This document shows, in pieces, positions 17,552 through 50,195 of a stretch of 64,000 bases of DNA. The notes below the pieces were generated by a model that had not been told where the DNA came from, did no database searches, and saw nothing but the letters and a program-made list of their open reading frames with translations. The DNA lies in assembly GCA_000091205.1 (NCBI GenBank), contig AP006502.2. One strand, given 5' to 3'. Position 1 is the first letter of the stretch. Every line of letters starts with the position of its first letter. This stretch comes from Cyanidioschyzon merolae (Eukaryota). A program made the translations under genes and the position numbers.

Positions 17552-17653
17552 ATGGAAAAGTGTCCGGGGAGCCCCGAGGATATAGCAAAGTACGGACCGC
17601 TGACAGACGAGCAAATGGAAAGGATAACGAAAGTGCGCAGGCTACTTGCATTA

Positions 17654-22159: not shown

Positions 22160-22751
22160 ACATTTGCTGAGCACGTTCCCCGCTGAATACCGGCGGGTCG
22201 GCGGCGTGCATGCACTGCTCTACGGAATGTTCGGCTGATGTTGTCAGCGCAGCAGACGTCTTAAACAAACATTCGACGCGGTCGTGGTCCGCTTGGCTCG
22301 AACGCTCGACTAAAGGAAGAGGCTCGAACAGGCGTCCAGCCACTCTGTCTGGCAGGTGCCATCTATTTACCAAGTACCAGCGGAGAATCTTGATTTTATG
22401 CCCACGTACTCTGCTGCAAGAACACCTATTGCCTCGTGTACTAGTCGTTCCGAGCGAATGCCCACGCGTACGGCGTATAGGCAACGCTTTCTCCCGCCCC
22501 GGCGCCAGCCAGCTGTACGAGAAAAGCACGTCACGCACCAAGCAGGTCACCACCTGTCTGCCGGGGATGCTCCCGACGGGCAAGAACCACTTGTGTCGAT
22601 CGTAATGGTAAACCAGCAGTGCCAGCATAACAGACGTCAGGCCGCGAACCCTCCACGCACACACACACAGTCGCTGTTTGACTGATACTGTCCTGTCGAG
22701 AAAGCGTCCTCGTCTGCCCAGCTACGCAGCTCCGGAGCGCCGTCCAACGAC

Positions 22752-23294
22752 TCACTCAAACTCGAGCTCCTCCTCCTCCTCGCTGCCGCTACCCGACACG
22801 GCTTCCATGGCGGCTTTGCGAGTTTCCGACTGGATGTACAAGATAATCAGGAACGCAACAGGGATCAGAGTGCCCAGGAACACCGCCAAGTACGCACCGA
22901 ACTGCACGGTCATACCGCTCTCCTCTGCGGCGTATCCCATCGAAGGAAGTGCCCACATAGCCGCCGCGAGCGACACCGCTGACGCAACTGGCGAACCTGA
23001 CTGCGCCTCCGGGGCACGTGTCGCACCAGCAACGCGCTGCTGCTGCTGCTGCTGCTTCAGCAAAACGGCGGCGCGCGTGCAGCCAACAGCTCGGTGAACG
23101 CGCATCGTCGAGCGGCTCGGTAGGGGTGCTCGCACCCTTTGCTTCAGCACAAGCCGCGACTTTGATGAATATCCAACCAAGTTTGTCACAAACAACGTGT
23201 TCATCGCTGCAACTTCTGTAGTGAGGCTTGACGAAGCGCGGCTTGCGATAGAGACAACCGCAGCACGCTCAGACAGCGATGGCGATCGCGGCAC
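22752..23294 (-). CDS. Hypothetical small single-TM protein with polyQ tract and acidic C-terminus (possibly organelle-targeted); low confidence
   Basis: 'MWALPSMGYAAEESGMTVQFGAYLAVFLGTLIPVAFLIILYIQSE' hydrophobic helix followed by 'GSGSEEEEELEFE'; lies in a GC-rich low-complexity region. Confidence 0.25.
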   Translation of the reverse strand: MPRSPSLSERAAVVSIASRASSSLTTEVAAMNTLFVTNLVGYSSKSRLVLKQRVRAPLPSRSTMRVHRAVGCTRAAVLLKQQQQQQRVAGATRAPEAQSGSPVASAVSLAAAMWALPSMGYAAEESGMTVQFGAYLAVFLGTLIPVAFLIILYIQSETRKAAMEAVSGSGSEEEEELEFE

Positions 23295-23828
23295 AGCGGG
23301 CCGAGCATCGCAGGCAGCGCAGCAGGCACCGGGGCCGCGAGATCACCACGGAGGAGGCGCGGAGGCGCGGAGGCACTGCCGCTGTACCTGCCGCTCGCGT
23401 CTCCGCGGCCCAGCAGCGGATCGCGAGGCGCGGCTGCCTGCTGCGCAGCCTGCGCTGCCAGGATGCTACACCACATCGCTGCGTCCACGCGTACCTGTCC
23501 GGGTGCGCGTATCATCATGCTTAGGACCAATGAATGGACCTCATTTTCTCCACAGATGCTCCAGCGTCCCATACAATCCAGATGCGTCTTCTCCCCCCGG
23601 AGGGGGGGGGACGGTTGCAGACCCCTGATGCATCCATGAACACACCCGATATCGAGCCTACTGCGGCTCGTGTCGATGAGGATGGCGCAGAGGTCGGCCT
23701 CAGAGGCGGCAGCTTACGTCCGGGAGTGGCCTCCAGAGCTCCTGGCCTGCAGCGGCATCCGCTCGGTGCGCTCCTCGCCAGCCTGTCGGCTATGTACCGA
23801 TCGGCGGCGCGCCCGGGGCGCCTCGAGC

Positions 23829-23880
23829 GCGATCCGCCGCTGCTGCTGCCTGCTGCTGCCTGCTGCTGCCTGCTGCTGCC
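23829..23880. repeat. 10-bp unit tandem repeat (gctgctgcct)x4 within a GC-rich low-complexity region
   Basis: 'gctgctgcctgctgctgcctgctgctgcctgctgctgcct'. Confidence 0.85.
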
Positions 23881-24503
23881 TGTTCCTGCAGCGGCGGCGG
23901 TGCGCGCCGCTGTGCTCGCGGCGGCATCTCGCCGAGCGTCGCCCCGAGCACAACCGATGCGCGCGTGCGCAGCAGTGCCACGAAGCGGACGACGCAGGCA
24001 TCATACGAGAGGATCGACTTTGTGGCATTACTGTTTGTTGCTCAGAGCGTGCTTCTTGCGTATCTGTACGTTTCGAAAGCCTGCATTACACACCGACACT
24101 TTTGAAGCATGTTTGTGAACGGCTCACTTTCAGTAAAGGTCAAGAAGGGAGCAGCTTCAGCATCAGTGGCACGTGCCGCAGCGCACACGCGTCGAACAGC
24201 TGGTGTCGCTACAGCAAAGCGTACAGGTGCTACGCGTTCGCCTGTGCAAATGGTTCTTGCTCCACACGTCGCGCAGCCGCTGGAGACAGTGGTAGCTTTT
24301 GCGAACACACAAAGTACCAGCTTGCTCACAGCAGCAAATGAAAGCGACTTTGGCGGTTATTTCATTCCGGCGATATCGCTCATCATACTCGGTGCGATTA
24401 TCCTGGCGCTCTCGCCACCACTGCGTGACTAGGGCGTCGGAACGTAGCCGAGCGGGCCTGGTCATCGCGTTTACCGGGTGATGCGTATGGGATAGTTTCA
24501 GTT

Positions 24504-25829
24504 TTACACGTTAAAGCGAAACAGTATAACGTCGCCCTCTTGCACCACATAATCCTTTCCTTCAGCACGGACGAGTCCCTGCTCCCGCGCACTCGTCAAG
24601 CTACCTGCCTTCACTAGATCCACGAAGGATACAGTTTCCGCGCGGATAAAGCCCCGTTCAAAGTCCGAGTGAATCACACCGGCCGCCTGGGGCGCCTTGG
24701 TGCCCCGCGGAATCGTCCATGCGCGCGTCTCCTGCGGTCCGCAGGTAAAGAACGTGCATAGCCCGAGCGTCTCGTATGCGGCACGAACCAAAGCCCGTAA
24801 GCCTATATTTTGGAGATCGTTGATGCCTAGCGATTCCAAGTACTGCTCTCGCTCGAGCGGTGGAAGCTCTACAAGCTCGCTCTCCAGTTGCGCCGACACC
24901 GCCACAACAGGGGCCTGTTCGAGTGCGGCGTATTCGAAGACCTCACGCACGAGCGCAAGCGGGCTTTCGTTATCCGGCCAGACATTTGCCTGCATTTTCG
25001 CCTTCGCCAGCGTTTCTGTGGCAGCAGCAAGCACGCTGTCGGCAACATTCGCAGCATAGATGACCGGTTTGGCGGTCAGCAGACCCAGGCGACGTAGGGC
25101 CTGTCGCTCATCCACGGTGCAGTCGGATAAAGAACGCCTGATCGGCATCCCAGCATCTAGCGCCTTCGTGACGCGCTCGAGTGCACTGCGTTCGGTGTCC
25201 TCGGCCAACTGACTCGAGGTCATCGTGCCCGCGCCTGCTGAACGGCGCGAGCTACCCGGCTTTCGCAGGCGCTCAAGCCTCTTCTCCACCATAGCCAAGT
25301 CGGCTAGCATAAGCTCTGTATCAATGGTTTCAATATCTTGCTTGGGATGGACATGACCAGCGACATGCACCACGCGTTCGTCCATAAAACATCGAACGAC
25401 ATGCACAATCGCATCACATTCACGGATATGCGAGAGGAATCTGTTGCCGAGGCCTTCGCCCCGCGATGCGCCCTTCACCAGACCTGCAATATCTACAAAC
25501 TCCAAGTAAGTGGGGACGATGCGGCTGGAGCCGCCGATCTCCGATAGCACCTCGAGACGGGAGTCGGGCACCGTAACTACCCCAATATTCGGCTCGATCG
25601 TGCAGAAGGGAAAGTTGGCTGCCTCTGCTTTCGTCTGCTCGCACAGTGCATTGAAAAGCGTCGATTTGCCTACGTTCGGCAAGCCAACTATTCCGGTTTG
25701 GAGCTTGCAACGCAAGGAACGGCTGGACGCCAGTGACGCAGGTCTAGAGCGGTATCGTGCCTGGGTTTGTCTCACGGCTACTGGTCGTGCCCAGGCCGCT
25801 GTGGTGACTATCCCAGCGAAGCCGAGCAT
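24504..25829 (-). CDS. Obg-like ATPase 1 / YchF GTPase with ~40 aa N-terminal presequence-like extension
   Basis: '[20 protein letters not shown]' (YchF G1), C-terminal TGS domain '...[18 protein letters not shown]'. Confidence 0.9.
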
Positions 25830-28800
25830 GGTGCTTTGCGGACGTCACCGTTCGCAAGGGTTTCAAAAGTCGGCGTCGCTGGCCAGCACCCAGGAACACC
25901 GCAGTCAAACGCGCCACCGGATGCTCCAGTTGATATTCAGAGAGCGCGCCCTGAGTACTCTGTGGTCGTAAGCGTCGATTCTGCAGCGCAGCACGCCACC
26001 CCAACGTGTACAACGTGTGTGAAGCGACTTCACGTTGCAGTACAACGGAGCGCCTGCAAGAGCACAGGTTCAAGTAGGCAACGCAGTGCAGCTGCCGACT
26101 TGCCGCAACGCAATGCAGCGCGACGTGCCGAGTCTGACGGCGTTACAGCCAGCGTGTTGCTGCTCAAGCGGTCCTCGATGCACTGCCTGCTGGAATACCT
26201 TTCCATGCAGGTCCTTCTTGTTTTTCGTTTGGTTTTCTCGCAGGTACTCACTGAAAGGAATTTATTGGGTTGCTTGGGGAAAAGTTGCGTAAAGACTTGA
26301 TCCTGTAAATACTAGCTTGCGAAGACGCAGACTCATTTGCACAAGTCAGCAATTCTGCGGGCAGCACGTGGATGACGCACCCTGTTCGTCGACGTTATCC
26401 TGAACGCCGCGCACTCAAAACATAACCTGTGGAACTCTATGTACACGGCCATCTCCTCGTCCATACATGCTACTCGAGACGTTTTCTACCGAATAATACT
26501 AGAGAAACCACAGGTACTGAAGTGTCCACAACATTGAAACGAACGATGACGAAGGGACACCGATGGAGAACGGAAACAGGTGCGCTTCTGCTGGAGATCG
26601 TCGTGCGTTGAGCAACAAACGATCGATGTCGCACTGAAACGCGATCGCTCAGTCCAACACGAACGAGTTTTCGACTCAGTCTACGAGACCTCGTTGGGAG
26701 AAACGCCAGACCGATACATGCGGTACTCCAAACGGGCTAATCATCTGACCGAATCGGAGAGACAAGCGAGCGTCTCGAAAATGTCATTCCGAGCGGCGAT
26801 TCAATCGACAGGTCACCTGTGAAGCGACAAGCGATCTTTTCTGTTCAGCAATGCGTCCATCATCGAGGCGGCCCGGTGGCTTCTCCGCCGCGCATTCCTC
26901 TGTCTCGCTCGTACACATCGTCGCTTTCCATCATTCACAGGCGGTGAACGAGTACGCAGCTCCGATTCGCGTTGAACCGGTCGTCGTGTTAACCTATTCT
27001 CTCAGGTTCACTTGACTCGAATGCATCGTGTCTACTGTAGCAACGCCATTTTGACGCTCGCGAATCATTGGATGAGTCACTCGCATCCGTGGCACCGTTC
27101 TTCGACAAGTGGTTCGATACCTTCACCAGTCTTGGACTGGTATATTGCCGGCCTGCTCGTGGGCCGGAAGGAGCGAAAAGATGCACTCCGGTCCATGGCC
27201 GTGCACGCAACGGAACAGGTGACGAAAAACTGCATGTGAGGAAGTTGAGATACATGCACGAAAAAGGCGAGTTTCGGTGCTACTGCCCAACCTGCGCATC
27301 TGAATCCCGAGTGAAAACGGATATTGGATAGATTCAGCACATCCATGCAAACCGGCTGCGCAAAGGAACAGATGAAGAAGGTGGCGGTAACTACGAGCAA
27401 GTATGATAAAGCCTTTGCACAATTTTGTGTGCAGCATTCGCTTAGCTCGTTCAAGGGTTCTCGTTTAAAGTGAGAATATGGAAATAAGTTGGCGTGGATG
27501 ATGGAGACCGAGGGGATATCCATCCGCACGCACTCTGTTCGACCGAAGCCAATGTCGAGGAACGAGACCCCTCGTCCATCGTTCAAGCTTGAGGAAGAGA
27601 ATGACGCTTTCGTGAGCGTGCTTCTCGGATTTCAGGAAATAATCGCCGCCACCCCACCTCTGTATGAAGACAACGGAGCCAGAAACCAGAATGGAAACCA
27701 CATGAAGCTGCTCAAACATTGACGGGACTCGTTATGATCGGGGATCGGTCACGATGACCCCCAAGAGGCATGCCCGCAGTAGAGTGAGCGTGCCAAGACG
27801 CATGCCGACGCCCTCAGTACAGCACCGGGCAGCGGCAGATGCCTTGCGCCCTGCATTCAGAGAGAGCACACACACGAGCGCTCAAACGAAGCATGCGGAC
27901 GACGTATGCTGGGCGATCATGAGACCGCTCGGGATTCGTCAACGATGTCGATTTTACGGATGCAGGAAGCAGGTATTCGCCAAATTTTCGAATGTGTCGG
28001 AGACGGCAATGACGAACAAGTTGGATCGTTTCGTGGCAGCCTATGGCGCTGGACGCAGTGTGACGCCCAGAGCAGCACTCCTGTATCTTCGACGAGCGCG
28101 TACACCGAGTGCTGGAATCGATGGTATACGATTCCTGTCGATGCGCTCCCTAACGACATACACGCATCACAGCGACGGATGCACACACGGAAACAGACGG
28201 ATAAGAAGAGACGGAAATCGACATGGACACACGAAACGCTGGGCGGTAAACTCTGACCGAACATCAAATGGCGAAGCACTCGAAAACGAGGCGCTCGCGA
28301 TGGTGTAACACGACCAGCAACCCGACGTGCAAGCATGTTCTGCGTACCCCGAGACCTGAGCGCCCCGCTCAACGCCTGCAAAAGTATCGTACGTACGGAG
28401 CGCTCAGCAGGTTTGTTTCAAGCGATACTTCGAAGGCATCGCACAGTGCATCGTGCGGGCATTGTGCTAGAACGCCGATGACTTGCGATGGAACGAGTCA
28501 GTGGCCAGAAGCGAGAGCATCGGATTCTTGCCTTGAGCAAAGCACGCGCATGGTACGGTTCAGGTATCCGTGAGAAAGGCCAAAACGCGCGGCATATACG
28601 TCTACATGGATCGGGAACGATTTTCCCGGTCAATAGTTGAACCATGATATTGTTCCGGTATACGACACCAGCGAGTCTATGAAGCTTAGAATCTATGGAT
28701 GTACGACGGAGCAAGCATGCATATCCGAAGACGCGCCCAGGTTACCATCGAGAGCAACTCGGCCGAGTGCCAAGTCAACCGAATACGTCTGCTGCAACAC

Positions 28801-29153
28801 GAACCTCCGAGAGACGCCCTTCACGTCAAGATTCGAAGCTGCTGCTGCTGCTACTGCTGCTGCTGCTGGTAAAGTATGTTCAGCGCGAATCACCAACGCC
28901 TCCGCTTGCCAACGCTCGCGTCGAGCAGGCAGTCATCCGGCCCTGGAGCAGCGGCTGCTATCGACAACGCCAGCAGTTCTGAAGCAGCTCCATAGTGAAT
29001 TCAGCTTTACGGGTCCTGGGCTACATCCGTAATCAAGTCACCGAGGGGGCGAGTTTCAGGTGCAAACGATCACGAAACGCGTCGCTGCCGGCACCAGCGT
29101 CGCGCATGGAACGAAAGCGCTCCACGTAAACCTTGCCCCAGCTTGCAGCGCTA

Positions 29154-32141
29154 TCAGACTCGAGCGGCGCTGTTGCTCGTCACTTCCAAGCGCACAAACG
29201 GATGCTTCAAGAGGTCCGCAGCACTCGGACGCTTGGATGGTTCCCATACCCAACACGCTTTGAGAAAGGAGGCGCACTCAGCGGATAGGTTCGGGGGTAT
29301 TGGTGGCATGCGATCTTGGACCATTCGAAAAAGTGCTGCCATGGCATTGAGCGTGTGATACGGTCTGCGACCGGTGGCGAGCTCCAGCACCGTGCACCCG
29401 AGACTCCAGATATCCACGCTGTGATCATAGGGTCGTCCTTCAATCATTTCCGGTGCAATGTACCAGGGCGTTCCGACCATGGTGTGTCCGCTGCCGGCAG
29501 TCTGCAGATCAACACATGAACTCACGCCGAAGTCGGTAATTTTCACCATTCCGTTCTGGTTCACCATGATATTTCCCGGTTTCAGGTCGCGATGCGTGAC
29601 CCCGTGGGAATGCAGGTATCGCAGACCGTGCAGCACCTGACGCGTGATTTCGCGTACCAGCGGCTCGTGGAACTCGTTGAACTGGGCCAAGTGTTCTGCG
29701 AGCGACCACCCGTCCACATATTCAATCACGAGGTTCAGATCGCCCTTCTCGCCGATAAATGACCCCTTGTACTCGACAATGTTCTCGTGCCGTAAACGTT
29801 GCCACAGACGCTGCTCCTTGAAGGCCCTCGGATCCACGGTGTAGAGCGTCTGGCCGCTATCCACCGCGTGGAACGATTTGATGGCCACGATTTCGTTGGT
29901 TCGAACGTTGCGTGCCATGTAGACGACACCGTAACCACCGCGACCGAGAACCTGGCCCAGCTCAAAGGTATCTACGGTGTAGAAATGATCTTTCTGGGCA
30001 TTCGCTAGCGGTCGCATGGTCACCGTTCGACCGGTCGACTGGAATGCACCAACGGACGGCCGCAGTGGTCTACATTTGAGTGATAGCGGTGCTAGCGCAG
30101 AGACCTGTCCTTCCACAGCTACCGAGGCAAGGTTGTTGCTCTTTGAGCGTTGCCCCTCGGGTGCGCTCCGGACAAGCGCAGATCGCAGGTCGATGAGTGC
30201 TGCCTCAGAGCGTCCACTCTGAACGCTTCGTATCGAGCACTGACGCAGGTGCGTCAGGAGTGTTTGTCGAATATCGCTGCCCGCACGGGCAAGAACGATG
30301 AGTGCACGGCGAGTCTCGGAGCTGAGCTCCCCGGCGGGTTTCGCAAGCTCCAGTATCGACAGCAGGGGCAGGTCAACGCTCAGAGAGGCAGCAACGCGAG
30401 CGGTCGCAGCCTCGAGACACAGGTTCGCCAGCGCCCTGCAAGCGTCTGCCAGGGGGTTTGTGGACGCAGACTCGAAATAGTGCGTAGCCTGTCGCTGCTC
30501 GCACTGCTCGATGAAACGACAGAGCGTTTGCGTGACGAGGGGCCAGTTACGGGCAGCTGCACGACCGCGTGCGGTTGCACCCAAGTTGCCAAACGCTCGA
30601 CACGCTTCGGCAATGGTGTCGCTAGCACGGAAGACGTGCGAATGGTCTGCAGAGGGGGCACGGTCGAACTCGTGCCAAAGCTGACCGCTCGCAAGTTCGG
30701 ACGCGATGAGCCTGGCAAGTGCGGGAAACACCCCGATATCTATCAAGTAGTCGTGGACAGCACCGCTCTGAAGCGATAACTCGGCAATAATGCTGGCAAC
30801 ATGGAAGTTGAACTCGGCTCGCTCTGCTGGCTTGCGGAAGGCATCAATGTGTCGAAGAATCGCCTTGATGCACTTGGCCTTCACCAGTGCGAGTGCGCAC
30901 GGTGGCTCCTGGGCGATGTTTCCGAAGGCTCCGGTCGCTTCAACCATCGCGCCCTGCATGATTTCATGTTCGACCAGGACCTGGGGGGCGGATAACACCT
31001 GCACGAGCGCGGGGATAACGCCCAAACGGACCATTCCTTCGGCAGTGCGCGGACTCCCAGCCGTGAGATTCCGGAGCGCGCGTGTCGCTGAGGCCAATGT
31101 GGAGAGTAGCACCCCGAGCGCAGCGCTCGCTCCGCACTCTACCAAAGACGTTGTGGTGCGGGTTGCAGTGGCAAGCTCTGGAATCACGGAACGCACAAAT
31201 CCAATGAGTGCAGATGGTGCGTCGGCACGCACCAGCTTTTCTTCAAGCTCTTCCAGTACCGACAGCTCCGCCAGCGCAAAGGCTGCATGCGACTTGCCTA
31301 GATCAGAAGTCTTCGCGTCACGCAGCGCCGACACCAGGAACGGGATCGCCTCGCGCTCGACGAGCTTTCGACGTGCCTCATCGCTCCGAGCAGCGATTCG
31401 TGCCACTCGCAGCAGCTGGACCTCGGCTTGCGGAGCTGCCCAGTTCTCCACAGGCGTGTTCGAGCTGCAGCCGTTTCCAATACTGCTGGATGATGCTGAG
31501 TCCGTTCTCCGGTGCCCAGCGTCGGCGTCGGCTCGCGCACTGGCCTCCTCCGCCGCAGCCCGCACACTCGTCGGAACCTGACGCGGCACCAGCGAGCGAC
31601 GGCGAGCAGAGCCCGACGCCCCTACCGCCCCCTTGACGCTGGCAACTGGTATAGACTGCTCGCTGGGACGTTGAGACGCCTGCTGCTGAAGGAGGCGCTG
31701 CCCGGCTTTGGCCGGTTGAGAAGTCTCACCGGGTTTTCGCCCACCAACGTCGGCGCGCGCCACCTGTCGTGCACGCACCGGAGCCGCATCCCCACTTTTC
31801 GATCCTTGCAACCCGTGAACGGGAACAGCTGCAGGCGCGCGTGCTGCTGCAGTTTCGATCGAGCGCCCCGAGCGCTTCCCCGCAGCTCCCTTGCTCTGCT
31901 CTTTATGCACTTCCTTCGGGTGCTTTTTCTTGCCGATAGTAAAGAATCCCATGAGGATCTCCGTTTTGCAGGTAGCTTGCAAAACAGCGACCAGCCTGTT
32001 GAACAAAGCGCTCGTGCTCCAAAGCCACCCAGGTCTCGTGCTGCAGTCCGAAAGAGCCGCAGCAGAGCATCTGGCTGGAACCTGCACCCGTCCAGCGCTG
32101 CTTGACGCGACACCGCCTCCTCCTCCCATGAAACTGCACAT
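29154..32141 (-). CDS. Serine/threonine protein kinase with N-terminal armadillo-like repeats (kinase domain C-terminal)
   Basis: 'LGQVLGRGGYGVVYMARNVRTNEIVAIKSF', 'HRDLKPGNIMV', 'ITDFGVS', 'GTPWYIAPE'; N-terminal half has ARM-like 'ALVQVLSAPQV...' repeats. Confidence 0.8.
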   Translation of the reverse strand: MCSFMGGGGGVASSSAGRVQVPARCSAAALSDCSTRPGWLWSTSALFNRLVAVLQATCKTEILMGFFTIGKKKHPKEVHKEQSKGAAGKRSGRSIETAAARAPAAVPVHGLQGSKSGDAAPVRARQVARADVGGRKPGETSQPAKAGQRLLQQQASQRPSEQSIPVASVKGAVGASGSARRRSLVPRQVPTSVRAAAEEASARADADAGHRRTDSASSSSIGNGCSSNTPVENWAAPQAEVQLLRVARIAARSDEARRKLVEREAIPFLVSALRDAKTSDLGKSHAAFALAELSVLEELEEKLVRADAPSALIGFVRSVIPELATATRTTTSLVECGASAALGVLLSTLASATRALRNLTAGSPRTAEGMVRLGVIPALVQVLSAPQVLVEHEIMQGAMVEATGAFGNIAQEPPCALALVKAKCIKAILRHIDAFRKPAERAEFNFHVASIIAELSLQSGAVHDYLIDIGVFPALARLIASELASGQLWHEFDRAPSADHSHVFRASDTIAEACRAFGNLGATARGRAAARNWPLVTQTLCRFIEQCEQRQATHYFESASTNPLADACRALANLCLEAATARVAASLSVDLPLLSILELAKPAGELSSETRRALIVLARAGSDIRQTLLTHLRQCSIRSVQSGRSEAALIDLRSALVRSAPEGQRSKSNNLASVAVEGQVSALAPLSLKCRPLRPSVGAFQSTGRTVTMRPLANAQKDHFYTVDTFELGQVLGRGGYGVVYMARNVRTNEIVAIKSFHAVDSGQTLYTVDPRAFKEQRLWQRLRHENIVEYKGSFIGEKGDLNLVIEYVDGWSLAEHLAQFNEFHEPLVREITRQVLHGLRYLHSHGVTHRDLKPGNIMVNQNGMVKITDFGVSSCVDLQTAGSGHTMVGTPWYIAPEMIEGRPYDHSVDIWSLGCTVLELATGRRPYHTLNAMAALFRMVQDRMPPIPPNLSAECASFLKACWVWEPSKRPSAADLLKHPFVRLEVTSNSAARV

Positions 32142-32968
32142 CGATTACGCGCCGCGCCGCTGCGCTACGCGATCTGTAACGCTTTCGCTTTGGAGGTACG
32201 TCGGGGCCCGACCATCAGTACAGGGAACGTAACCTGGAGGTAGGGCGTTTGATGAATACTTTACAGTGCACTGAAAAAGAGAAAAAAGTAAGAAAAGAAA
32301 AATGAACATATTCAGAGAACGCTCGCCTAAGTAAACGTTTTGTCAACGAAAAAAAGGTGCGCTGGGACGTTGGCGGAGCGCGCGGCACGTGCCTCTGTCA
32401 TTCGCCTGGTGGAATCGAGAAGCGGTACACTGGAGCGCTTCACGATTCCACAAGGCTATAAATGGGGAATATGTCAAGGCATACCCAGGTTGTTTTAATG
32501 GTAATGCTGATGTTATTGGCGATGTTGGTGCCTTCAACATCTTCGAAGGCGTCTAGAGCAGGTGCAGTGGAAGCTCGGAGCGGTGCACGATGGATAGCAG
32601 TGCTATCTTCGACGCATAGTCGGGTCTGGAGTTCACGAGCTTGTCGAGGTGTCTGACGCCAAGCGCTATGCAATTTTCCGTTTGCGGACAAGAAGCGCGG
32701 ATCCGAAGGGACCCAGTGATACGGATCCACCGTAGATCTGTGGAAGAAAGCACGTGCGAGCGCTGCATCCGGAATAGTCGGGCGCGTCTTGACTTTATGG
32801 ACCTTGCTGGGAATGACGGGGATCATCGCACATCGTACGCGCCAAGTGCTTGGCCAAACGAGACCGCACAGGTCGCTCTACACACCGATGCACCTGTACT
32901 GCCATGCCGTTGCTTGTAGGGAGCGCTTGCTTTCGCCTCGCGCCTAGTGCGTGAAGTTGCACGACAAC

Positions 32969-34921
32969 TCATCGCATCGCTCGATCGGCAGTTTTGCGGA
33001 AGCGTCCGCGCTGCTGGACTTGCCGCAGCCGATAACGCTGCATGCTTGTATTGCCTCGGTGGAGTTTGCGCAGCCGTTTGGGCAGCGTCTCAATAGGCCG
33101 GAATGGCTGAATGTACTTGATCGAAGCGTAGGCGTTCAGTTCGCGTTCGTCCATGTCAAGCATCTCCTCTGGTGAGACACCGAATGAGCGCGGTTCCACT
33201 CGTCGGTACCGGAAACGAGTATTTGCCAGCAAGTCCTCGCGGTTAAACTGGTCGACGTCACTGTCGTTATCGAACGGGGTAGCAATCTCGCTTGGGTGAC
33301 CGTTCATTCGATGCGAACCCGTGACCCGATCGCTACGCGCTGCAGAGCTGTCAGCGGGTCCAGAAGCGCTCTTTCCGATGCCGAAGTCGGCGTCCGGTTG
33401 CCAGCCCTCATCTGGAGCGCTCTGGTATGCCTCTCGTTCGAAGAGGTCGCGCATTGCAGTATCAAACTTGGTGGCGTCGAAATCATGGTCGCTCTCCGCA
33501 AGCGCTAGAACCCGCTCCACAAGCTCCATTTCGGAGGAGGCTCGTCCGCCGGATGACGCTGCCTTTGCCGACTGCTCCAGACCAGCAGCGCGAGCAATGC
33601 GTTGTAAGCGCTCTGTGCGTTCCGCTAAATGCACATTTCGCAAGCGACGAAGCGTCTCCAGCTGTTTGCGCTTCATGAGGTCTTCACGCGCCGCCTTGGC
33701 CTCACGCTGTCGTCTCCGCGCTTCTTGCTTTGCCGATGGCTTGCGCAGTGAGCCCTCAATTCGACGCGGGTGCGAGGGAATGAGATCCCCATGCGGCTCC
33801 TCGAAACGGAAATTGTGTGCTTGCTCGAACTGATCCTGCCTTTCGAGGAACTGCTCGTCCTCTTCTAGAGTGTCAGACGTTTGTGGATTGCGGAGATTTT
33901 CGACAGATGCAACGCGCTGCAGCAGATCATGAGCAGGCCCGAGCCATCGATTGTTCACGACATAGTCGTACAGAAAGGCATCCTTCTCGGCTACGGTCTC
34001 TTTCTCTAAGTACGCATGCTGTCGTTCTTCATCCGACTGAGGTGTAGCATCCACACGCCGAGCGTCAGTGGTGGTTCCCGGTGCCAGTGCAGACACACCA
34101 GAGACATGGGTCTGTAGGATTTCCTCCAACCGACGGTCGGTTTGTTTCACTATGAAAAAGTCTTCACTGCTCTCTTCATTCAATTCTTCGCTGACAGAGC
34201 GCTCATGATAATTCGCTACACCATCCGGCTTCATGGTTTCTCTTGCAGCCCGCTCCAAGAATTCCAGTCGAAGAGCCTCCTGCTGCTCATCGTAGACCGG
34301 TATGCGAGGACGGCGTTCCACAGTCTCCATGTCCGGGGTTACAGTTCGGTCTCTCTGGCCAACTTGCGAGGAATTCGACGACAGCTGCGACGATGACATG
34401 GACGAGGAGGAATCCGCCTCTGCCTCCCGCAGAAGCCCCTCACGCCAGTACTGATCTAGACACACGGCCTTCTCCTTTTCCGCTTTTAGCGCCAGAAGGT
34501 CGTATCCAGCGACCGGCTCTGCCTCGTCATTCGTTGTGGTTCCTGGACTAGATTCAGATCGACCACTAATACTGCCCGAGTCATCATAGAAACGATAATT
34601 TGGATCGTAGATGCGGGCATCGCGCCTTCTGATTAGCTCGAGCGTCTGCGCCCACTGCGCGTCCAGTCGTTTGGTGAGCAGCAGGCCCAGGTCATCCTCC
34701 TCGGTGCTTTCATCGGCATCACTGGATGAGGAATGCAAGGAGCTGGCACCCGATGGAGAAGGTGCCTGGTTGCGTGCTCGTGCTGGCCGCTGGTCAACGT
34801 CTCTTCGTTCGTTCAGCTGTCGTTCGACTTCTCGAAGGTTGCTAAGCTCCTCTCGCCGTTTACGCTTGTCGTACTCTCGCGCAAACTTTTGATTTATCTG
34901 CAGCTCCATAATAGAGTGCAC
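32969..34921 (-). CDS. KRI1-like ribosome biogenesis protein
   Basis: 'DAFLYDYVVNNRWLGP' (Kri1 'FLxDYILNRxW' motif) and C-terminal 'FRYRRVEPRSFGVSPEEMLDMDERELNAYASIKYIQPFR' (Kri1_C). Confidence 0.7.
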   Translation of the reverse strand: MHSIMELQINQKFAREYDKRKRREELSNLREVERQLNERRDVDQRPARARNQAPSPSGASSLHSSSSDADESTEEDDLGLLLTKRLDAQWAQTLELIRRRDARIYDPNYRFYDDSGSISGRSESSPGTTTNDEAEPVAGYDLLALKAEKEKAVCLDQYWREGLLREAEADSSSSMSSSQLSSNSSQVGQRDRTVTPDMETVERRPRIPVYDEQQEALRLEFLERAARETMKPDGVANYHERSVSEELNEESSEDFFIVKQTDRRLEEILQTHVSGVSALAPGTTTDARRVDATPQSDEERQHAYLEKETVAEKDAFLYDYVVNNRWLGPAHDLLQRVASVENLRNPQTSDTLEEDEQFLERQDQFEQAHNFRFEEPHGDLIPSHPRRIEGSLRKPSAKQEARRRQREAKAAREDLMKRKQLETLRRLRNVHLAERTERLQRIARAAGLEQSAKAASSGGRASSEMELVERVLALAESDHDFDATKFDTAMRDLFEREAYQSAPDEGWQPDADFGIGKSASGPADSSAARSDRVTGSHRMNGHPSEIATPFDNDSDVDQFNREDLLANTRFRYRRVEPRSFGVSPEEMLDMDERELNAYASIKYIQPFRPIETLPKRLRKLHRGNTSMQRYRLRQVQQRGRFRKTADRAMR

Positions 34922-35140
34922 TCTATTGCGTTCACTCGGGTCGTCAACTCGGGAAACGGCGGCGGGAACGCGTCCTTGTGGCCTTCAAATAGAGATGGTG
35001 TTGCGGCTCGTCCCTGTTACCTGATTTCGCGAGTGCAACTTGTTGTTCCCTGTTCGGGCGGGTTTCGCCTTCGAAAGATAACAGGTCCAGTTGACGCGGC
35101 TCAGTTGAAATTAGTGGTATAAGTACTCGAAGCACGGCAC

Positions 35141-37679
35141 AGAGTCGAACGCTGCTGCCGGCAGTGTACAGTAGTGGCGAGAAGCCCGCCCTAGACACAA
35201 AGTCACCGAGTGACGTGCAGGCGCCTGCCAGACTTTTTCGACCGGCCACCCACAACTGCTTCCAACTTTTTCTCATATAGTAAAACTTTCAGAATTGTCC
35301 ATCAAAGTTCCCTCTTGTTTAGTCTGGAGGTCTATTCTCCAGTACCGCACATCTCCTTACATTGATAGCGGCGTTCAAGTCTCGGTTCACAAACTCCACC
35401 TGTTTCGTGCCGTTAGGAGTTTACTCACTAATGCGAGTAGCCCACGCACTTTCGCTAGCCTTTCCATGTGCTCGTCTGTCAGCGGTCCGTACTTTGCTAT
35501 ATCCTCGGGGCTCCCCGGACACTTTTCCATCTAGACCCTCTGAAGTGTACACCGCAGTTCATGGTGTGTATACGATGTTCGAAACTCATCTACCGGGTTC
35601 GTAACGAAACGCCGTGCGCACTCCTTGTACACCCTCGTCGTTGGAGCTGGTGTACACCCTTTTTGGGTCTTCCATCGCCCTGCTCGGTATGCTACTACTA
35701 GCCTCTGATTTTCATCCTCCTTCAAGGCGCTCAACTCATTGAAAAAATTCGCGAACGCCCGCTGCTTTCCACAGTATAGATTCATACGCAAACGAGCCCA
35801 TCTGGGCATTGTATACTCCTCCCACAGCGCATCCCAATGCGCAACACGAACTTCCATGAATTTCCGAAAAGCTTTAAAGTCTGCTTCTCGGCTCGTCACC
35901 TCGCTCGTGGCTTCCAGGTGATCCTTCATTCCTGCATCCCATGCAGAAATTTTCTTCCATGCATTCATTATACCGGATTCTCGGTAGTATCTCGCTCTCG
36001 AGATTCTCAAAAGACGCATGTCTTTTTTGACGTACGTTGCCGTCAGTCCCATCTTCGGCACGCTTCGGTGCTGCAATGGTGATGATATTCGTATTCCCCG
36101 GGTCCGCGCCAACGACAAAGTTGTTATCATGCACTTTTTGGGTCGCAGGACCCGCCTTCTTCTTTTCTTCATCCTTCGTCCCGCCAACCATAAAGGCGTT
36201 ATCCTGCACCTCCTGCATCACAGGATCCGCCTTCTTCTCATCTTCATCCTCCGTCACGCCAACGACAAGGTCGTTATCCTCCGCCTCCTGCGTCGCAGGA
36301 CCAGCCTCCTCCTTTTCTTCATCCTCCGTCACGGGCGCAGCCGAGGGCGGAACTGGACGATCTTTCTTCAACCGCCGGTAGTGTACACACAAGGCTACCC
36401 CATCGGTTTCGATCATCCCAGTGAATACCTTTTGCTAGCTCACTTTGAGTCGTTTGAAATCGAAGATATTCTTCCAGTACGTCTCCCTATTCTCACCGGT
36501 GAACTCTCTTCTCCTTACATCGAACTCTGAACTGATCTCCTTCATGATGCCATGAAGGACGCCGGAGTCGATAGTCCCAACATGTGACTTGATGTTTCAT
36601 AATGGATCGACGTTGAAGCGCTTCCCCATTAGGACAGCCTTCCGTCTCTCCGACTCCTCATTTTTTCCTCACGCAGCTTCACCTCTGCCTTGCATTCGAG
36701 TTCACGGTCCAAAAACACGAAATAGCGCAGGATGAGGCGATAGAATCTTTCCTTATCTTTTTCAACTCGGATATCTTGTCTGTTGGATTGACCAGCCCCA
36801 AGATCGCACGGTGCTCTTGTATAGCCGCACGGGTCACAGAAGCTTCATTCCTGCTCCTGCGTGACGTCTTCTTGTAGACGAATCTGAGTTCCTGTTTATG
36901 ATGGCGATCTTTTGGGACGCCATCGATAATGGCCCATATCGCCCTGCGAGACAGGCCAGCCTAGAGTGCAAAGACGGAGCGTATCATGAAACGATCGAGC
37001 TTCATGGTCATATGGTTCTTCAAGTTCGTGATGTACTTCATCGCCCCGTAGGTTTAAATATTCGAGTCACCCCTGTGTCGAGCACCGTCAAAGCAGGATT
37101 TGGCGTAATTTTAGTGGAGTGCATGTGCTCGCTCATCTCTCCTCAACGTATACCCTGTGCTAGCCATCGGGTCACGATTAAAAGTCTTGTCGGAATGTTC
37201 GTATGGAACCTCGACTTCTATGATGCCCGTCGTGTCGCGATACATCTTCCTGGCCATATGCATCATTCCTCAAACAGCCTTTTGCAATACTCATTTAGTA
37301 ACACGCGACTCGGTTTTTGATGGCCTCTTGCAACTTTTCCTTGTATGCATCCTTGATATGGCGTGGAAGATAGGCTTTCGTTACCATTTTGTCGTACTGT
37401 CGTCTTTCTTGCAGCATTCGACGTGGGGCCTCCCCCTTTCGGTCCTTCTTCTTCTTTTCCTGGTCTTCTGGACTCGGCACTGATTTCTGTTTTTTTTTCT
37501 GGCAGCCGGCGACCCTGGCCCTACAGGATCGTCGACCTGCTTTTTCATAACTTTCCTTTTTTTAGTTGTTTTGAAAAAGAACGCTCTTTGAACCCTTCTG
37601 TTGTATACTGCGAAAAAGCGCTTTACTAGACTTGTTTGAGGTGTGAAACGCAATCGAACTGAAAGACTGTACTTTGCTA
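35141..37679 (-). mobile_element. Fanzor1-like element copy 2, inverted relative to copy 1 (~2.54 kb); degraded: frameshifts plus an internal ~90 bp tandem triplication upstream of RuvC-I
   Basis: Reverse-complement similarity (~94-97%) to 15563-17941, including 3' tail, 29-nt intron and TAG; ORFs 35531-36187 and 35874-36416 (-) carry the Fanzor sequence in different frames; repeated '[18 protein letters not shown] / [20 protein letters not shown] / [21 protein letters not shown]' units. Confidence 0.75.
35531..37480 (-). pseudogene. Fanzor/TnpB-like nuclease pseudogene (copy 2)
   Basis: N-terminal 'KKKKDRKGEAPRRMLQERRQYDKMVTKAYLPRHIKDAYKEKLQEAIKNR' (CAA where copy 1 has TAA), RuvC-I '[16 protein letters not shown]', C-terminal '...[20 protein letters not shown]'; reading frame broken at least twice. 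Confidence 0.7.
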
Positions 37680-38359
37680 TGACTCCAACGGAAATCCAAC
37701 TTCTACAGCTGAACAACACACTACTGATCAAGATCACGGTTCCCTTCAACGGCGGCATGTGCGTCGTGTCTCATGCCTGCCTGATATCCCAGGTGCGCTC
37801 ACTGACCGCGATGCATGCACCGCGCGAGACGCTAGACCCATCGATGAAGGACACGTGTCCGACACCCCGCATTGGCACATGCGTGCTCTCACCGGCGCTC
37901 TGCGGCACACGCGGCAGCGGGTAGTTTCAGAAAAAAGAGAAAGCGGACACTCCTCCGCGGATGATCTGAGCTTACAGACTTTCAGTTCTATTTCGTTTCG
38001 CCCCCGCTGCAGTGTATGTTAAGACGTCGAAATAACTGTGCAACTTACCGTATATATCGTTGGCAAATTGTCTGCAGGATATATTCATTACTGAACAGCT
38101 CATGGAGGACTGCGTTCATCCTTGAGGTCAGTCGCACAATAATACGCAGATGGTTGATGAACACTGCAAGTAACAAATATATGCGCACCGCACCAAAAAC
38201 TGGTATTCTCAGCGCATGCTTGCCGTCAATGGTAGAAAACGATCCGCTGATAACCTTACGGAAACTTAGTGCAACGAAAGTGGTCACAACGGGCGTCTCT
38301 GTTTCCCAACACCTTGTCCATACTGTCCTGAAAACACCGGGATACAGGCGCAAAAGAAG

Positions 38360-39480
38360 ACTCTATTCATTCACGGCCATCCTCTGCCAAAATCGCAATG
38401 ACAGCATTCCGAGGACTGAGCGATCGGTATGAGGCACAGGGTCGTCGGGTTTGCTATTCCATTCGTTGAGACTTTCTTCGGACGAAACGGTCCGAGTATA
38501 TATGGGTATTCGCGGAGCGGGGCCCCCATCGTAAATAGGATCGAAATCGAAGAGAACGAGGACATCTTCATCAGTCTTAGCTGTAGTGGATTCATTTGAC
38601 GGCCTCAGTTTCGCTCCTGCGGAAGGCACATACAACAGAACCCTCTTCGCCGGATCATTGAAGACTTTTCTCAGACGTCTGGTGAGGTCCTTCGATTCCA
38701 CAACGTTGCATTTCACCATTACCCTTGCATTCGAGTTTTACCGAATCTTTCGGGATAGAGCTGCTTTCTATTCCCCCGTGCGCTCCTTGATTCAACCCCA
38801 TCGAGGCCGCGTTTTGTATCGTGAAACGTCATGGTCGCTCCACTGGGCAGATCTCCGACGAGTTCGCCGTACCGTGACACACCGGGGGCGCATTTCGTCT
38901 TTCTTCCACACGTCCTTCTCTGTCCAAGAAAATTCTCACCGTAGTGCATCATGAAGTGTGTTCGTTTTGAAGAAATACAATATCCAAGAGATGAGCTGGG
39001 GTGTACACTCCAGAACGTCGAGATGGAGAGAGGCCAGGGAAGCGCTTCGGCGATAGAAGAGCACGAAGAGCTGGCAGAGCAGCAAACGGCACAGAGAGAA
39101 CGTGTTCGAGGAATCTTTGCATTCATGCGTTCAACGAGAGGTAATAAACGCATGGAGTCCGTGAACCAAGACTTCAACGCCGTCATCCATATCAAACGAT
39201 GCGTGGTGCGGATGACGAGATGCGCGGACCTGACACGATCCATCTTTATGGGCCAGCCTCTCAGGCTCAACGTGTACAAAGAGAAATTGAAATCGATAGC
39301 AGGGGTCCGGTCGTTAAAGACTGGGAGGCATCTGCGCGTCGTTATTCATTTACCCTCCATAATTGTGAAACATTTTGTCTTTCACCGACTCTACAGAAGA
39401 CGGCAATGGACTTGGGCTTGTGTCCCCGAAACGATCGATTGCAGTGAAGCATGTGGCTCCGCTTTGCACCAAGGCGACAT
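38360..39480 (+). mobile_element. Family-2 TnpB-like element fragment (copy C), degenerate
   Basis: + strand encodes '...GNKRMESVNQDFNAVIHI' (degenerate RuvC-III, ~39161-39193); 5' part homologous to 44270-44810 (rc) and to the 780 bp repeat; no intact ORF. Confidence 0.45.
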
Positions 39481-40196
39481 AGACTGATAGAAATATCTGG
39501 ATGAGTTCCCAATCTTTGGTTTTTTCGGGTTCTTATTGCATCATGGACGACATCGCGCACCGCAAATCCTCGATTCACTGGAAAAGTGAGCGCTTGCGTG
39601 TGCAGCTGACAACGCACTCGCATACGGGATTGTACAGAAGAAGCGCGCCATAGCACGGTGCGACACCGGCGAAGTAGATTGCATCTATCCCTCTGGACCC
39701 TTCAACGGCATACACCAAGCTATAAAGCAAGCGTTTTCGTGCTTCAGGGCGACACCGGTATTACGCAATGTGGTAGACGCATAGGCATATCTCACGAGAG
39801 TCAGGTGTCACGGTTGCGAGGCGCTCAGCGAGGCTGTGTACCTAGAACTTGAAACAGTCCTGCGAAGCGTAGGTCGCAACTCTCGCATCTGCATGGAATG
39901 CACCAACGACTGACAGAAGCGGCGAAATCGGGACCTGAACGCTTCTATCCATTTCCTTTCGACAACGAACAACGGAACTGGAGGCAAGGAATACCCCAAT
40001 ACATTTAAAAACGTAGATGAAACAGTGGAAAAAGAGACCAGTTGAAGAAAAAGCTCCCAATGACTGGTATTGATGATCGTAGGAAAACCCGTAAACACTG
40101 GAGTGTATGCCGCAGTCAGCAAAACGGACCCTTTCCAGGGTCGTCTGACATGACAGCATCTGGAGAATCCACGAATACGCAGCTGCAGCAGAGGCA

Positions 40197-43486: not shown

Positions 43487-44810
43487 GTCCGTTTTGGTGC
43501 ATATCGTTTCGTTCAGGTGCGTACCGGGACCGGCCGCCTGCTATCGGTGTCGGTTCGTTGATCTGCGCTTATTTCGCGCATTAGAGGCCTGTCCCACGAA
43601 GGCTGGATCGTGTCAGCGACTTGGGTCTCGTCTCCAGCACACCGCATATCGTGTGATATGGATGGCGGCGTTAAAGTCTCGGTTCACGAGATCCTTGCGC
43701 GCATTGATTCTGGTGGAACGCGCCAATGCTAGCATTGGTCGAACTCGTGCCCACAGTGCCACTTCAGTCTCGTCATCGCTCCGTCAGAGGCAGACACCCT
43801 TTCTGGTCAACTTCTCCTTTTTCTTCGTCTTCTTCTTCATCACTTGCTCTGCGTCGCTCAACAGTCGGCGAGAAGAGGATTTTTTCGATTTTCTTCGGCG
43901 GTTGGTGGTGACGGCTCTCCAGGATCCTCGACCTGCGTACCAATATCATTCAGTTGGAATTTTCGTTTCTTCAAATGAATGCACTTGTTTATGCCCCTAG
44001 GCGAGGTCCTTCCCGTATCGAAAAGCACTTGCTGAAGGAAGACGAAATGTGCCCCATCATGTGACAATGTGGAGGACGCTTCAGCGATTCGCCGAATAGA
44101 GCGATCCTTACTTTTCACGATAGAAAGCACTCCTTCGATTGTGCTGAATCACCGAAATGTACGGAGGAATGGGAAGCAGCTCTGGCCCTATAGAATCGGG
44201 AAACGCTAGAACGCAAGTGGAATGGTGAAATACCACAATATCCAACAGAAAGACGTCTTCAGACCTCAGAGGAAAGTCTTCAACGAATTGACAAAGAGGT
44301 TGGTGATGTTGTACGCGCCTTCTCTACGTGCGCAACTGAGGCTGCCAAGTGAATCCACTGCACCCAGAACAGACGATGATGTCCGAATTCTCTCCGAGTC
44401 CGATCGTACATACAACGCGTTCCTTCTCCGCGAAGATTCATAGACCCTCTGATCGTCTCGTCCGAGGCAATTCTCATCCATCTTAGAAACAAACAGACGT
44501 CCCTGCGTTCCATACCTATCGCAACGTTGCAGGAACGCTTTAGGTGCAATATCGGTGCAAGATGGCCGTGCTTGAAACTGGACTTTTTGCGACTGTATCC
44601 CAGAGGTTTCAGGACCATACGAACAAGCAGTTGAGAAACAGAGGCACCTGTGGTGGCTTCTATCGTCGCTTTTTGCTTTCCATAAGTTTATGGACAGGTC
44701 GACTTCTACCATCGACCGCAAGCACGCTTCGAGTGCAAATACTTCACTCTTTCAGTGTTCCTGAACCATCTGGGTCCTGTAGTATGACTAACATGGGTGA
44801 GTAATGGAGT
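43270..44810 (-). mobile_element. Family-2 TnpB-like element fragment (copy D), inverted relative to copy C
   Basis: Reverse strand at ~43680 encodes a RuvC-III-like motif (the + strand reads 'AALKSRFTRSLRAL', the mirror of '..NAAINV..' regions); the 44222-44810 part is homologous to 38363-38954 and to 260-560. Confidence 0.45.
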
Positions 44811-49429: not shown

Positions 49430-50095
49430 GTGCCCAACACCGCAGGAGAACTCGAAACGCCGCCCGCATCCAATCGATTTGGGGAAAGCGCCGGCCAATA
49501 TAAAAGACTGCATAATTCAAGAAAAAGCATCCAATCGATTCGGGGAGCAACGACGGCCAATGTAAAAGACTGCATAATTCAAGAAAAAGCATCCAATCGA
49601 TTCGGGGAGCAACGCCGGGCAATATAAAAGACTGCATAATTCAAGAAAAAGCATCCAATCGATTCGGGGAGCAACGACGGCCAATGTAAAAGACTGCATA
49701 ATTCAAGAAAAAGCATCCAATCGATTCGGGGAGCAACGCCGGCCAATATAAAAGACTGCATAATAAAAGACTGCATAATAAAAGACTGCATAATTCAAGA
49801 AAAAGCATCCAATCGATTCGGGGTGCAACGCCGGGCAATGTAAAAGACTGCATAATTCAAGAAAAAGCATCCAATCGATTCGGGGTGCAACGCCGGGCAA
49901 TGTAAAAGACTGCATAATTCAAGAAAAAGCATCCAATCGATTCGGGGTGCAACGACGGCCAATGTAAAAGACTGCATAATAAAAGACTGCATAATTCAAG
50001 AAAAAGCATCCAATCGATTCGGGGTGCAACGCCGGGCAATGTAAAAGACTGCATAATTCAAGAAAAAGCATCCAATCGATTCGGGGTGCAACGCG
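49430..50095. repeat. Minisatellite: ~10-11 tandem copies of a ~62 bp unit ('gcataattcaagaaaaagcatccaatcgattcggggagcaacgacggccaatgtaaaagact') with 16 bp sub-repeat expansions ('ataaaagactgcataa')
   Basis: Directly visible periodicity; the ORF track shows phase-shifting repeated pseudo-ORFs (62 is not a multiple of 3). Confidence 0.9.
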
Positions 50096-50195
50096 CACGG
50101 GCACCTCATACACAGATCCGCCGCCAGCGATTGATGCCGAGGCGCGTCTTCCGATCCTAGTCAACAGGCTTCCAGGGCTACGCGCTCTGCTACGA

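Follow-up and report, generated by a model that had tools for sequence, protein, structure and literature searches.

Two dead, inverted copies of the Fanzor1-bearing CMe-1A element on Cyanidioschyzon merolae chromosome 20 share a 3' tract probably homogenised by gene conversion

The window analysed here, a stretch of 64,000 nucleotides, is part of chromosome 20 of Cyanidioschyzon merolae 10D and harbors two copies of CMe-1A, a known family of non-autonomous transposons that carry a Fanzor1 gene (encoding a eukaryotic TnpB-like, RuvC-type RNA-guided nuclease). This family has already been named and published, and finding it here is ordinary: a 2013 study of the same genome (Bao and Jurka, Mob DNA 4:12, PMC3627910) described the family, its Fanzor1 content, its copy number (~150) and its age, and reported a family divergence of about 80%, a CMe-1 Fanzor1 protein of 734 aa, a 5' module of 635 bp common to TE-N2_CMe and, in its supplement, a consensus of 3169 bp. 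Copy 1 (14787-17950, plus strand) is a full-length element including the 5' TE-N2_CMe module and matched the consensus in blastn at 84.3% over positions 1-3169. Copy 2 (about 35148-37810, minus strand; blastn 37798-35148) is a short form without that module, spanning consensus positions about 650-3153, with blastn matches of 84.7% and 86.8% within 660-3153. The short form outnumbers the long form among the sampled contigs, and a contig from another sample (L079) matches copy 2 plus its outer flank at 98.6%. The family as described lacks terminal inverted repeats and recognisable target-site duplications; a repeat search of the window with a minimum length of 60 reported no terminal repeats inside either element.

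The two elements lie in opposite orientations, with 15553-17939 (plus) pairing with 37689-35143 (minus), as an earlier note on this DNA had proposed; the same note had placed named host genes between them, and these were recovered with Pfam. The host interval between the two 3' ends (17951-35142, 17.2 kb; no strand assigned) was defined by Pfam and by exact matches to C. merolae 10D proteins. It begins with NRAMP (18021-19781, BAM83173) and ends with KRI1 (32969-34909, BAM83179), and Pfam matches identified an Arf-like GTPase, OLA1 (OLA1/YchF) and an ARM-kinase between them. Five host proteins near or within the interval had exact C. merolae 10D matches in the range BAM83172-83179. The C. merolae genome is otherwise extremely compact and repeat-poor.

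Neither copy retains an intact reading frame, each being interrupted by multiple stops and frameshifts. In copy 1, the start ATG has become GTG, and three stops (one at 15833) and two frameshifts are present; its longest open reading frame (15842-17551, 569 aa) is 80% identical to the CMe-1 protein over 568 aa. Copy 2 contains at least seven frameshifts and ~10 in-frame stops relative to the consensus frame, and a fragment of it matches the CMe-1 protein at E=3e-37 with a 50-aa insertion. Thus copy 2 is a frameshifted pseudogene, as first suspected, but the view that it is the only dead copy does not stand. Both copies are Fanzor1 members by descent, not functional members. The split RuvC signature (D...E...D, in the order I, II, III) was found in both, with a stop codon and a frameshift between the motifs. 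In copy 2 (minus strand), RuvC-I (ADPGNTN, catalytic Asp) was located by translation at 36086-36106, with coordinates counted from the end of the array described below; RuvC-II (DEFRTS, catalytic Glu), also read from the translation, lies at 35573-35590, mirrored from 17492-17509 of copy 1 through a gapless 883-nt alignment; and RuvC-III (NRDLNAA, catalytic Asp), out of frame with RuvC-II, lies at 35367-35387, mirrored from 17695-17715. The C-terminal amino acid identity of ~94% given in the earlier note was reproduced from the translations (about 94.5%, 9 differences in 164 residues).

Two ways of rescuing the reading frame were considered and rejected. A 29-nt intron (GTGAGT...CAG) at 17653-17681 would restore the frame, but intact relatives read straight through this segment (LALVSTTNDGKKRMEFVNRD), and copy 1 therefore has a 1-nt deletion there. 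The reading of TAG as a sense codon was likewise discarded, as relatives show GAG or GGG at that position and the annotation of the host genes uses the standard code.

The Fanzor1 assignment of copy 2, proposed at first from the letters alone, was borne out by the match to the CMe-1A consensus and by family profile matches to solved Fanzor1 structures. The latter link needed a profile of 40 family members, built from a representative search, which matched 9cf0 (E=2.6e-20), 8gkh (6.3e-13) and 9cer (3.4e-7). Used singly as queries against Pfam and the PDB, the copy 1 reading frame and close relatives gave no match, and neither did a shallow 12-sequence profile against the PDB. PF07282 was matched by nine of the 40 relatives, with no match in the window reading frame or in the relative P0001, for which an AlphaFold2 model built on 12 aligned sequences was too poor to use (mean pLDDT 46). 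Between RuvC-II and RuvC-III, where a C4 zinc ribbon (OrfB_Zn_ribbon / TNB domain) with CxxC...CxxC would be expected, the window copies read HHELWC...KC and LLALVS, and the alignment of the 40 members contains zero invariant or nearly invariant cysteines in the zinc-ribbon region.

Directly upstream of RuvC-I, copy 2 carries an in-frame tandem array (36107-36333, minus strand) of three 75-bp units, each encoding an acidic/lysine segment of 25 aa (TRF: period 75, 3.0 copies). The units are 79-81% alike, the reading frame is open throughout, and the array accounts for 50 aa beyond the consensus protein; copy 1 has one unit. The three-fold expansion reported previously was therefore confirmed in its unit number, but not in its period of ~90 bp or its limits of 36110-36390. 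Nor can it serve as evidence of decay, because the array is in frame, its units are old (~80% alike), and unit number varies from one to five across ~90 family copies (one in 40 copies, two in 20, three in 15, four in 11 and five in 4), with four units in the best intact family reading frame (722 aa). The array represents a polymorphism in coding length within the family, not a lesion. Slippage or unequal exchange is its probable origin, and it sits in what is probably a disordered linker before RuvC-I. Such a variable-number 25-aa array was previously undescribed and could interest those engineering Fanzor1 linkers.

The similarity between the copies spans ~2.4 kb, as the earlier note had stated, but the near-identity ascribed to all of it applies only to part, since two tiers are evident. 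The 5' 1.4 kb is 75.8% identical between the copies, whereas the 3' tract (17057-17939, plus strand, in copy 1; 35143-36025, minus strand, in copy 2) comprises 883 nt with 36 mismatches and no gaps, being 96% identical, with perfect identity over at most 198 bp at a stretch. All four inactivating lesions inside the tract are common to both copies: TAG at 17549 (35531-35533 in copy 2), a 1-nt deletion at 17661 (near 35421), TAA at 17761 (35321) and a 1-nt deletion at 17788 (near 35294). At 100 tract sites, the copies agree with each other and differ from the consensus; 17 and 15 sites are private. When compared with 81 paralogous 3' regions sampled from the same species complex, the copy 1 tract was at most 85% identical (median 81%), against 96% with copy 2, and ten other neighbouring pairs in related contigs were only 74-84% alike. 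In 10D, the 66 bp adjoining the array (16990-17056) are ~70% identical between the copies.

Taken together, the most likely explanation, in which we place considerable confidence, is that these are two old, independently inserted, dead CMe-1A members whose last 883 bp were homogenised by gene conversion after their death. The two copies would have been inserted independently, tail to tail and 17.2 kb apart, and the ~76% identity of the 5' 1.4 kb would be the divergence expected of unrelated family members. The tract would first have gained two stop codons and two frameshifts, and non-reciprocal ectopic recombination (gene conversion) between the copies would then have homogenised it. The 100 shared derived sites and the four shared lesions indicate that the homogenisation followed gene death, and the two-tier identity points to gene conversion. 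On one side, the tract would be limited by the 3' terminus of the element, where homology ends; on the other, it may have stopped at or close to the heterology that the array introduces (one unit in copy 1, three in copy 2). The array as a barrier is a loose idea, as the poorly matching 66 bp lie between it and the tract, which thus stops short of the array in 10D. The same pattern would be expected if a partial inverted duplication had placed a 0.9-kb 3' segment on a copy already present. The family does not undergo such conversion in general, since the other neighbouring pairs lack homogenisation. If correctly interpreted, the locus cleanly illustrates how two dispersed, dead transposon copies can undergo pairwise conversion, in a model alga whose genome contains very few repeats.

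Exchange in populations is suggested by three contigs, L049 (orthologous to copy 1), L079 (to copy 2) and L002 (to the KRI1 junction), which contain differing fine-scale mixtures of states of the copy 1 and copy 2 types, with some switches only 6-40 bp apart; these are short-read metagenome contigs, and the collapse of 96-98% identical tracts or assembler bubble popping could have created some of the mosaics. Several copy 2-type states in L049 correspond to the consensus state and may be private mutations of 10D.

The tract also bears on the proposal that crossovers within it flip the 17.2-kb interval, so that gene order is polymorphic, as the earlier note had suggested. C. merolae performs efficient homologous DNA recombination, a homogenised tract implies recombination intermediates between the copies, and both its overall identity and its longest exact match would suit such exchange; in addition, the 5' context joined to the KRI1 side differs in L002. 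However, the upstream genes of L002 are CMH091C and CMH092C of chromosome 8, and its 5' part matches neither copy; it thus does not represent the inverted arrangement and could be an assembly chimera. Among contigs at 83 loci from seven hot-spring metagenomes, none has the flipped junctions, with KRI1 next to the left flank or NRAMP next to the right one, but most of these contigs break inside the repeat. The reference outer junction is retained for copy 1 in three contigs (L049, L050 and L070) and for copy 2 in L079. In a published telomere-to-telomere comparison between 10D and MS1 Ha3, a strain from Yellowstone, the only rearrangements listed are an inversion and a translocation, on chromosomes 3 and 19; none is listed for chromosome 20, but a dot plot could miss 17 kb (PMC13353863). 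An inversion of the interval is mechanistically possible, but an active inversion switch appears unlikely. The interval nevertheless constitutes a concrete test case for inversion that would be cheap with existing telomere-to-telomere assemblies. A broader conjecture, which we also hold to be improbable, is that the dead copies still recombine in natural populations, that the NRAMP-to-KRI1 interval occurs in both orientations in some of them, and that CMe-1A copies are the main structural breakpoints; in a bolder variant, breaks made near element 3' ends by a few still-active Fanzor1 nucleases would start the exchanges.

Without conversion, both copies might derive from one recently active subfamily with a young 3' half, their 5' halves having become chimeric before insertion. 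The modular 5' ends of the family, with long and short forms, and the known mosaic copies (e.g., in L002) are in keeping with this explanation, but it seems quite unlikely: 0 of the 81 other 3' regions sampled exceed 85% identity to the tract, and the four inactivating lesions make activity through the tract unlikely.

Fanzor1 and TnpB elements encode their guide RNA at the 3' end, and selection might have kept the tract alike because it contains an omega RNA (guide-RNA) gene or acts as a promoter of the adjacent host genes. From the tract end to the start codon downstream, the distance is 71-82 bp for copy 1 (NRAMP) and 228-234 bp for copy 2 (KRI1), with the tract pointing towards the gene in each case, and a long hairpin is possible at the 3' end of the family consensus. 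This explanation is very unlikely, as selection would not yield 100 shared derived sites that include stops and frameshifts, other family copies are unconserved there (median 81%), and a conserved 3' RNA structure was unsupported by the hairpin z-scores (-1.74 for the consensus, -0.16 for copy 1) and by RNAalifold on the 3' ends of 48 copies (about 0 kcal/mol, with almost no compensatory pairs). Scanning the window for tRNA genes and against Rfam gave no matches.

The overall importance of the locus is low, given that the family was published in 2013 for the same genome and that both copies are pseudogenes; the probable pairwise conversion, the coding array and the 17-kb test interval are of modest value. 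At the family level, nothing differs from CMe-1A as described: the genome and the 734-aa Fanzor1 protein are the same, identity to the consensus is 84-87%, in line with the divergence published for the family, and copy 1 retains the 635-bp 5' module of TE-N2_CMe. The short form without the TE-N2 module, the 75-bp coding array of one to five units and the 3' homogenisation specific to the copy 1/copy 2 pair were undescribed by Bao and Jurka.

The family profile can be aligned with the solved Fanzor1 proteins of Spizellomyces punctatus (8gkh), Parasitella parasitica (9cf0) and Guillardia theta (9cer) through the REC-like region as well as the split RuvC domain, and the motifs DPG, DEFRTS/DEYKTS and NRD are in register; the window copies, however, are dead, and their clade appears to lack the canonical CxxC...CxxC zinc-ribbon cysteines, having HH..C...C and GLLALVS or GLLWC instead. 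The proposed conversion is also reminiscent of ectopic conversion between dispersed inverted repeats, such as yeast Ty elements and the arms of human palindromes. Here the event would be small (0.9 kb), would involve pseudogenes and would have no evident functional consequence, but the tract is likewise sharply bounded and confined to one pair, and the shared derived mutations and the tract ending with the homology are alike.

A self-comparison of the window pairs copy 1 of the Fanzor1-like element (15553-17939, plus strand) with copy 2 (37689-35143, minus strand), exactly where the earlier note had placed an inverted copy. Although the similarity covers the whole 2.4 kb, the near-identity ascribed to it does not extend throughout, since the 5' part (15553-16976 versus 37689-36257) reaches only 75.8% identity, with 39 gaps. 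Identity is 93.3% between 16905-17939 and 36178-35143, and a gapless 883-nt core (17057-17939 and 35143-36025; the tract) has 36 mismatches, being 96% identical. Overall, the earlier observation stands with corrected numbers, and its interpretation stands in part.

Five host proteins in the window match C. merolae 10D proteins exactly (CMT178C, BAM83172; NRAMP, BAM83173; the Arf-like GTPase, BAM83174; OLA1, BAM83177; KRI1, BAM83179), and as all five are on the 1.62-Mb record, the window is part of chromosome 20 in the finished reference assembly; neither repeat copy has an annotated protein. According to Bao & Jurka (2013), CMe-1A is the single Fanzor1 family of this genome, with ~150 copies, each ~80% identical to a 3169-bp consensus; its product is a 734-aa protein, it has no TIRs, its TSDs are not determinable, and its 5' 635 bp are common to the element TE-N2_CMe (PMC3627910). 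When the consensus from the supplement of that paper was aligned to the window, copy 1 (14787-17950) proved full-length (consensus 1-3169, 84.3% identity), and copy 2 (37798-35148) corresponded to consensus 660-3153 at 85-87% identity. Among ~60 complete copies on related hot-spring metagenome contigs, starts at consensus 600-750 are commoner than starts near 1; therefore, the lack of the TE-N2 module in copy 2 is no private truncation. The CMe-1 protein is 80% identical to the copy 1 ORF, and the longest copy 2 fragment aligns to it with a 50-aa insertion, namely two extra units of a tandem array. Both copies belong to an element family that was already known, and known from this genome.

Other remnants of the family were also observed in the window: a solo TE-N2_CMe element at 903-1547 (minus strand; 79.9% identical to consensus 1-636) and two old 3' fragments, one at 38991-39343 (plus strand; consensus 2737-3093, 73%), which lies 1.2 kb beyond the 5' end of copy 2 and has a counterpart in the orthologous contig L079, and one at 43608-43689 (minus strand; consensus 2908-2987, 82%). 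In contigs L026 (6437-12080), L055 (1-4922) and L022/L035, a long-form 5' end abuts an inverted short-form 5' end at a distance of 24-29 bp, a recurrent arrangement that may be informative on insertion preference or attachment of the TE-N2 module.

Set in the consensus reading frame, both copies prove defective: copy 2 shows seven or more frameshifts and ~10 stops, in agreement with its earlier description as a pseudogene. Copy 1 has an ATG-to-GTG change, a stop at codon 49 (15833), TAG at codon 621 (17549), a 1-nt deletion at 17661, TAA at codon 692 (17761) and a 1-nt deletion at 17788. Because intact relatives have GAG or GGG at the TAG position and read through the frameshift site uninterrupted, these two are lesions, and neither an intron nor a variant genetic code explains them. 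All four lesions within the tract are common to both copies; therefore, both are dead, and the tract was dead before it became shared. An ORF with all three RuvC motifs was found at only three of 83 related loci (~90 copies), and activity of either window copy is unlikely.

As each copy is ~85% identical to the consensus, two independent old copies are expected to be ~75% identical to each other, and this is the value seen in the 5' 1.4 kb. The tract stands out: when it is compared with 81 paralogous 3' regions of the species complex, identity has a median of 81% and never exceeds 85%. In ten further pairs of neighbouring copies, which are separated by 24 bp to 6 kb and some of which are inverted, identity is 74-84%. 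Within the tract, the copies agree with each other against the consensus at 100 sites, while 17 and 15 sites are private. The simplest reading of these sequence patterns is that non-reciprocal exchange (gene conversion) made the tract alike, an already-dead 3' tract having been copied between copies 1 and 2. Such a conversion tract would be bounded at the element terminus, where homology ends; its other edge lies just 3' of the heterology in unit number.

Metagenome contigs orthologous to the window share 98.5-99.4% identity with it, which agrees with the 0.7% divergence reported for 10D versus Yellowstone strains (PMC13353863); they carry differing fine-scale mixtures of copy 1-type and copy 2-type states. 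The copy 2 ortholog L079 is copy 1-like at 16990-17056, unlike copy 2 of 10D; the copy 1 ortholog L049 has a copy 2-like unit; and contig L002 switches back and forth between types within 40 bp. Since switches so close are hardly made by de Bruijn graph chimerism, these comparisons suggest repeated exchange between the copies in populations. Such mixtures could conceivably also arise where short-read assembly collapses two near-identical tracts, and some apparent switches are merely private 10D mutations.

The triplication noted upstream of RuvC-I consists of three units indeed, but of 75 bp at 36107-36333 (3.0 copies, 80% matches in Tandem Repeats Finder) rather than ~90 bp at 36110-36390. 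The units form one open frame of 25-aa acidic/lysine-rich repeats, each ending ...DN(D/A/N)(L/F)(V/M)VG, and the array directly precedes GADPGNTN; copy 1 has one unit. Across ~90 copies, one to five units occur in 40, 20, 15, 11 and 4 copies, respectively, and L003/P0001, whose ORF (722-752 aa) is the best intact one, has four. Given this range, the intact ORF and the mutual similarity of the copy 2 units (only 79-81%), the array is an old in-frame polymorphism in linker length and not, as had been supposed, a sign of decay. A poor AF2 model shows the array region of P0001 without secondary structure (pLDDT 21-29), a weak hint that the linker may be disordered.

The earlier note also proposed that the 17-kb interval might be inverted by recombination. 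A substrate is present (883 bp, 96% identity, longest exact run 198 bp), and no evidence of a flipped interval was found in the contigs checked, most of which end inside the repeat. The outer junction is as in the reference for copy 1 in L049, L050, L070 and L001 and for copy 2 in L079. Only L002 runs from KRI1 across the tract, beyond which are a third 5' variant, two more partial copies and then chromosome 8 orthologs (CysRS BAM79775, CMH091C and CMH092C). L002, which thus joins chromosome 8 genes to chromosome 20 genes (KRI1 to OLA1) via three Fanzor copies, is more probably a chimeric contig; an exchange between chromosomes 8 and 20 that took place at CMe-1A copies within a single Yellowstone population is less probable, and the inverted form is ruled out by the chromosome 8 genes past the tract. 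At 5452-7982 of this Yellowstone-type contig, two 5'-truncated CMe-1A copies lie head to head, meeting at most 3 bp apart (6791/6794) beside their 75-bp arrays; with arms only 82% alike, they are no recent palindrome. The rearrangements reported in a T2T comparison of 10D with MS1 Ha3 were confined to chromosomes 3 and 19 (one inversion, one reciprocal translocation), though a whole-genome dot plot could overlook a 17-kb event (PMC13353863).

A 778-bp direct repeat with sharp edges (10551-11328 and 21384-22161, 99.4% identical) has one copy to the left of Fanzor copy 1 and the other within the interval; it had no Pfam match and no further loci in the contigs sampled. The ~10.8 kb between its copies includes Fanzor copy 1, NRAMP and Arf, and as a recombination substrate the pair is better suited to deleting or duplicating this stretch than the Fanzor pair is to inverting the interval. 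The window also contains a tandem array at 49439-50133 (62-bp period, ~8-11 units, 64-96% alike), a 96-nt direct repeat (39524-39619 and 60938-61033, 77% identity), possibly a further dispersed repeat family, and a 180-aa ORF (22755-23294, minus strand) that may encode a nuclear-encoded photosystem II subunit precursor, as judged from a weak C-terminal PsbM match (E=5.6e-5, 23.3 bits versus a cutoff of 24).

Both element 3' ends face nearby host start codons (17940-18020 and 34910-35142), copy 1 ending 71-82 bp upstream of that of NRAMP and copy 2 228-234 bp upstream of that of KRI1. Of the 3429 bp that separate the divergent genes CMT178C and NRAMP, 3164 are taken up by copy 1, so the promoters of both genes must sit in or beside transposon sequence. 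Near the terminus, the family consensus can form a ~90-nt hairpin (z=-1.74); the copy 1 version (z=-0.16) is no better than shuffled sequence, and essentially no compensatory changes were found in the putative 3' RNA across 48 aligned copies.

Single sequences or a shallow profile gave no match in Pfam or PDB. An exhaustive profile search recovered 2731 family representatives at E<=1e-3, and a profile built from 40 diverse members, all full-length, matched the Fanzor1 proteins of Parasitella (9cf0, E=2.6e-20), Spizellomyces (8gkh, E=6.3e-13) and Guillardia (9cer, E=3.4e-7), with the DPG, DE(F/Y)(R/K)TS and NRD motifs in register with the solved structures; PF07282 was matched by 9 of the 40 members. 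Relatives carry the precomputed Pfam label DUF8286 (PF26935) instead of the TNB domain, and the AlphaFold model was unusable (pLDDT 46). As established for solved homologs, an intact Fanzor1 protein is an omega-RNA-guided RuvC nuclease. Whereas the 2013 definition of Fanzor1 includes a C4 zinc ribbon, this clade has no evident one: the region reads HHELWC...KC and LLALVS in the window copies, and the 40-member alignment has no conserved cysteine there. The four canonical cysteines between RuvC-II and RuvC-III appear to be lacking in this clade, CMe-type members reading HHELGC...C and GLLALVS and distant ones GLLWC.S. By descent, both copies are Fanzor1 elements, and the only additions to what is known of the family are the proposed pair-specific gene conversion of a dead 3' tract, the coding array of 1-5 units and the predominance of the short form.
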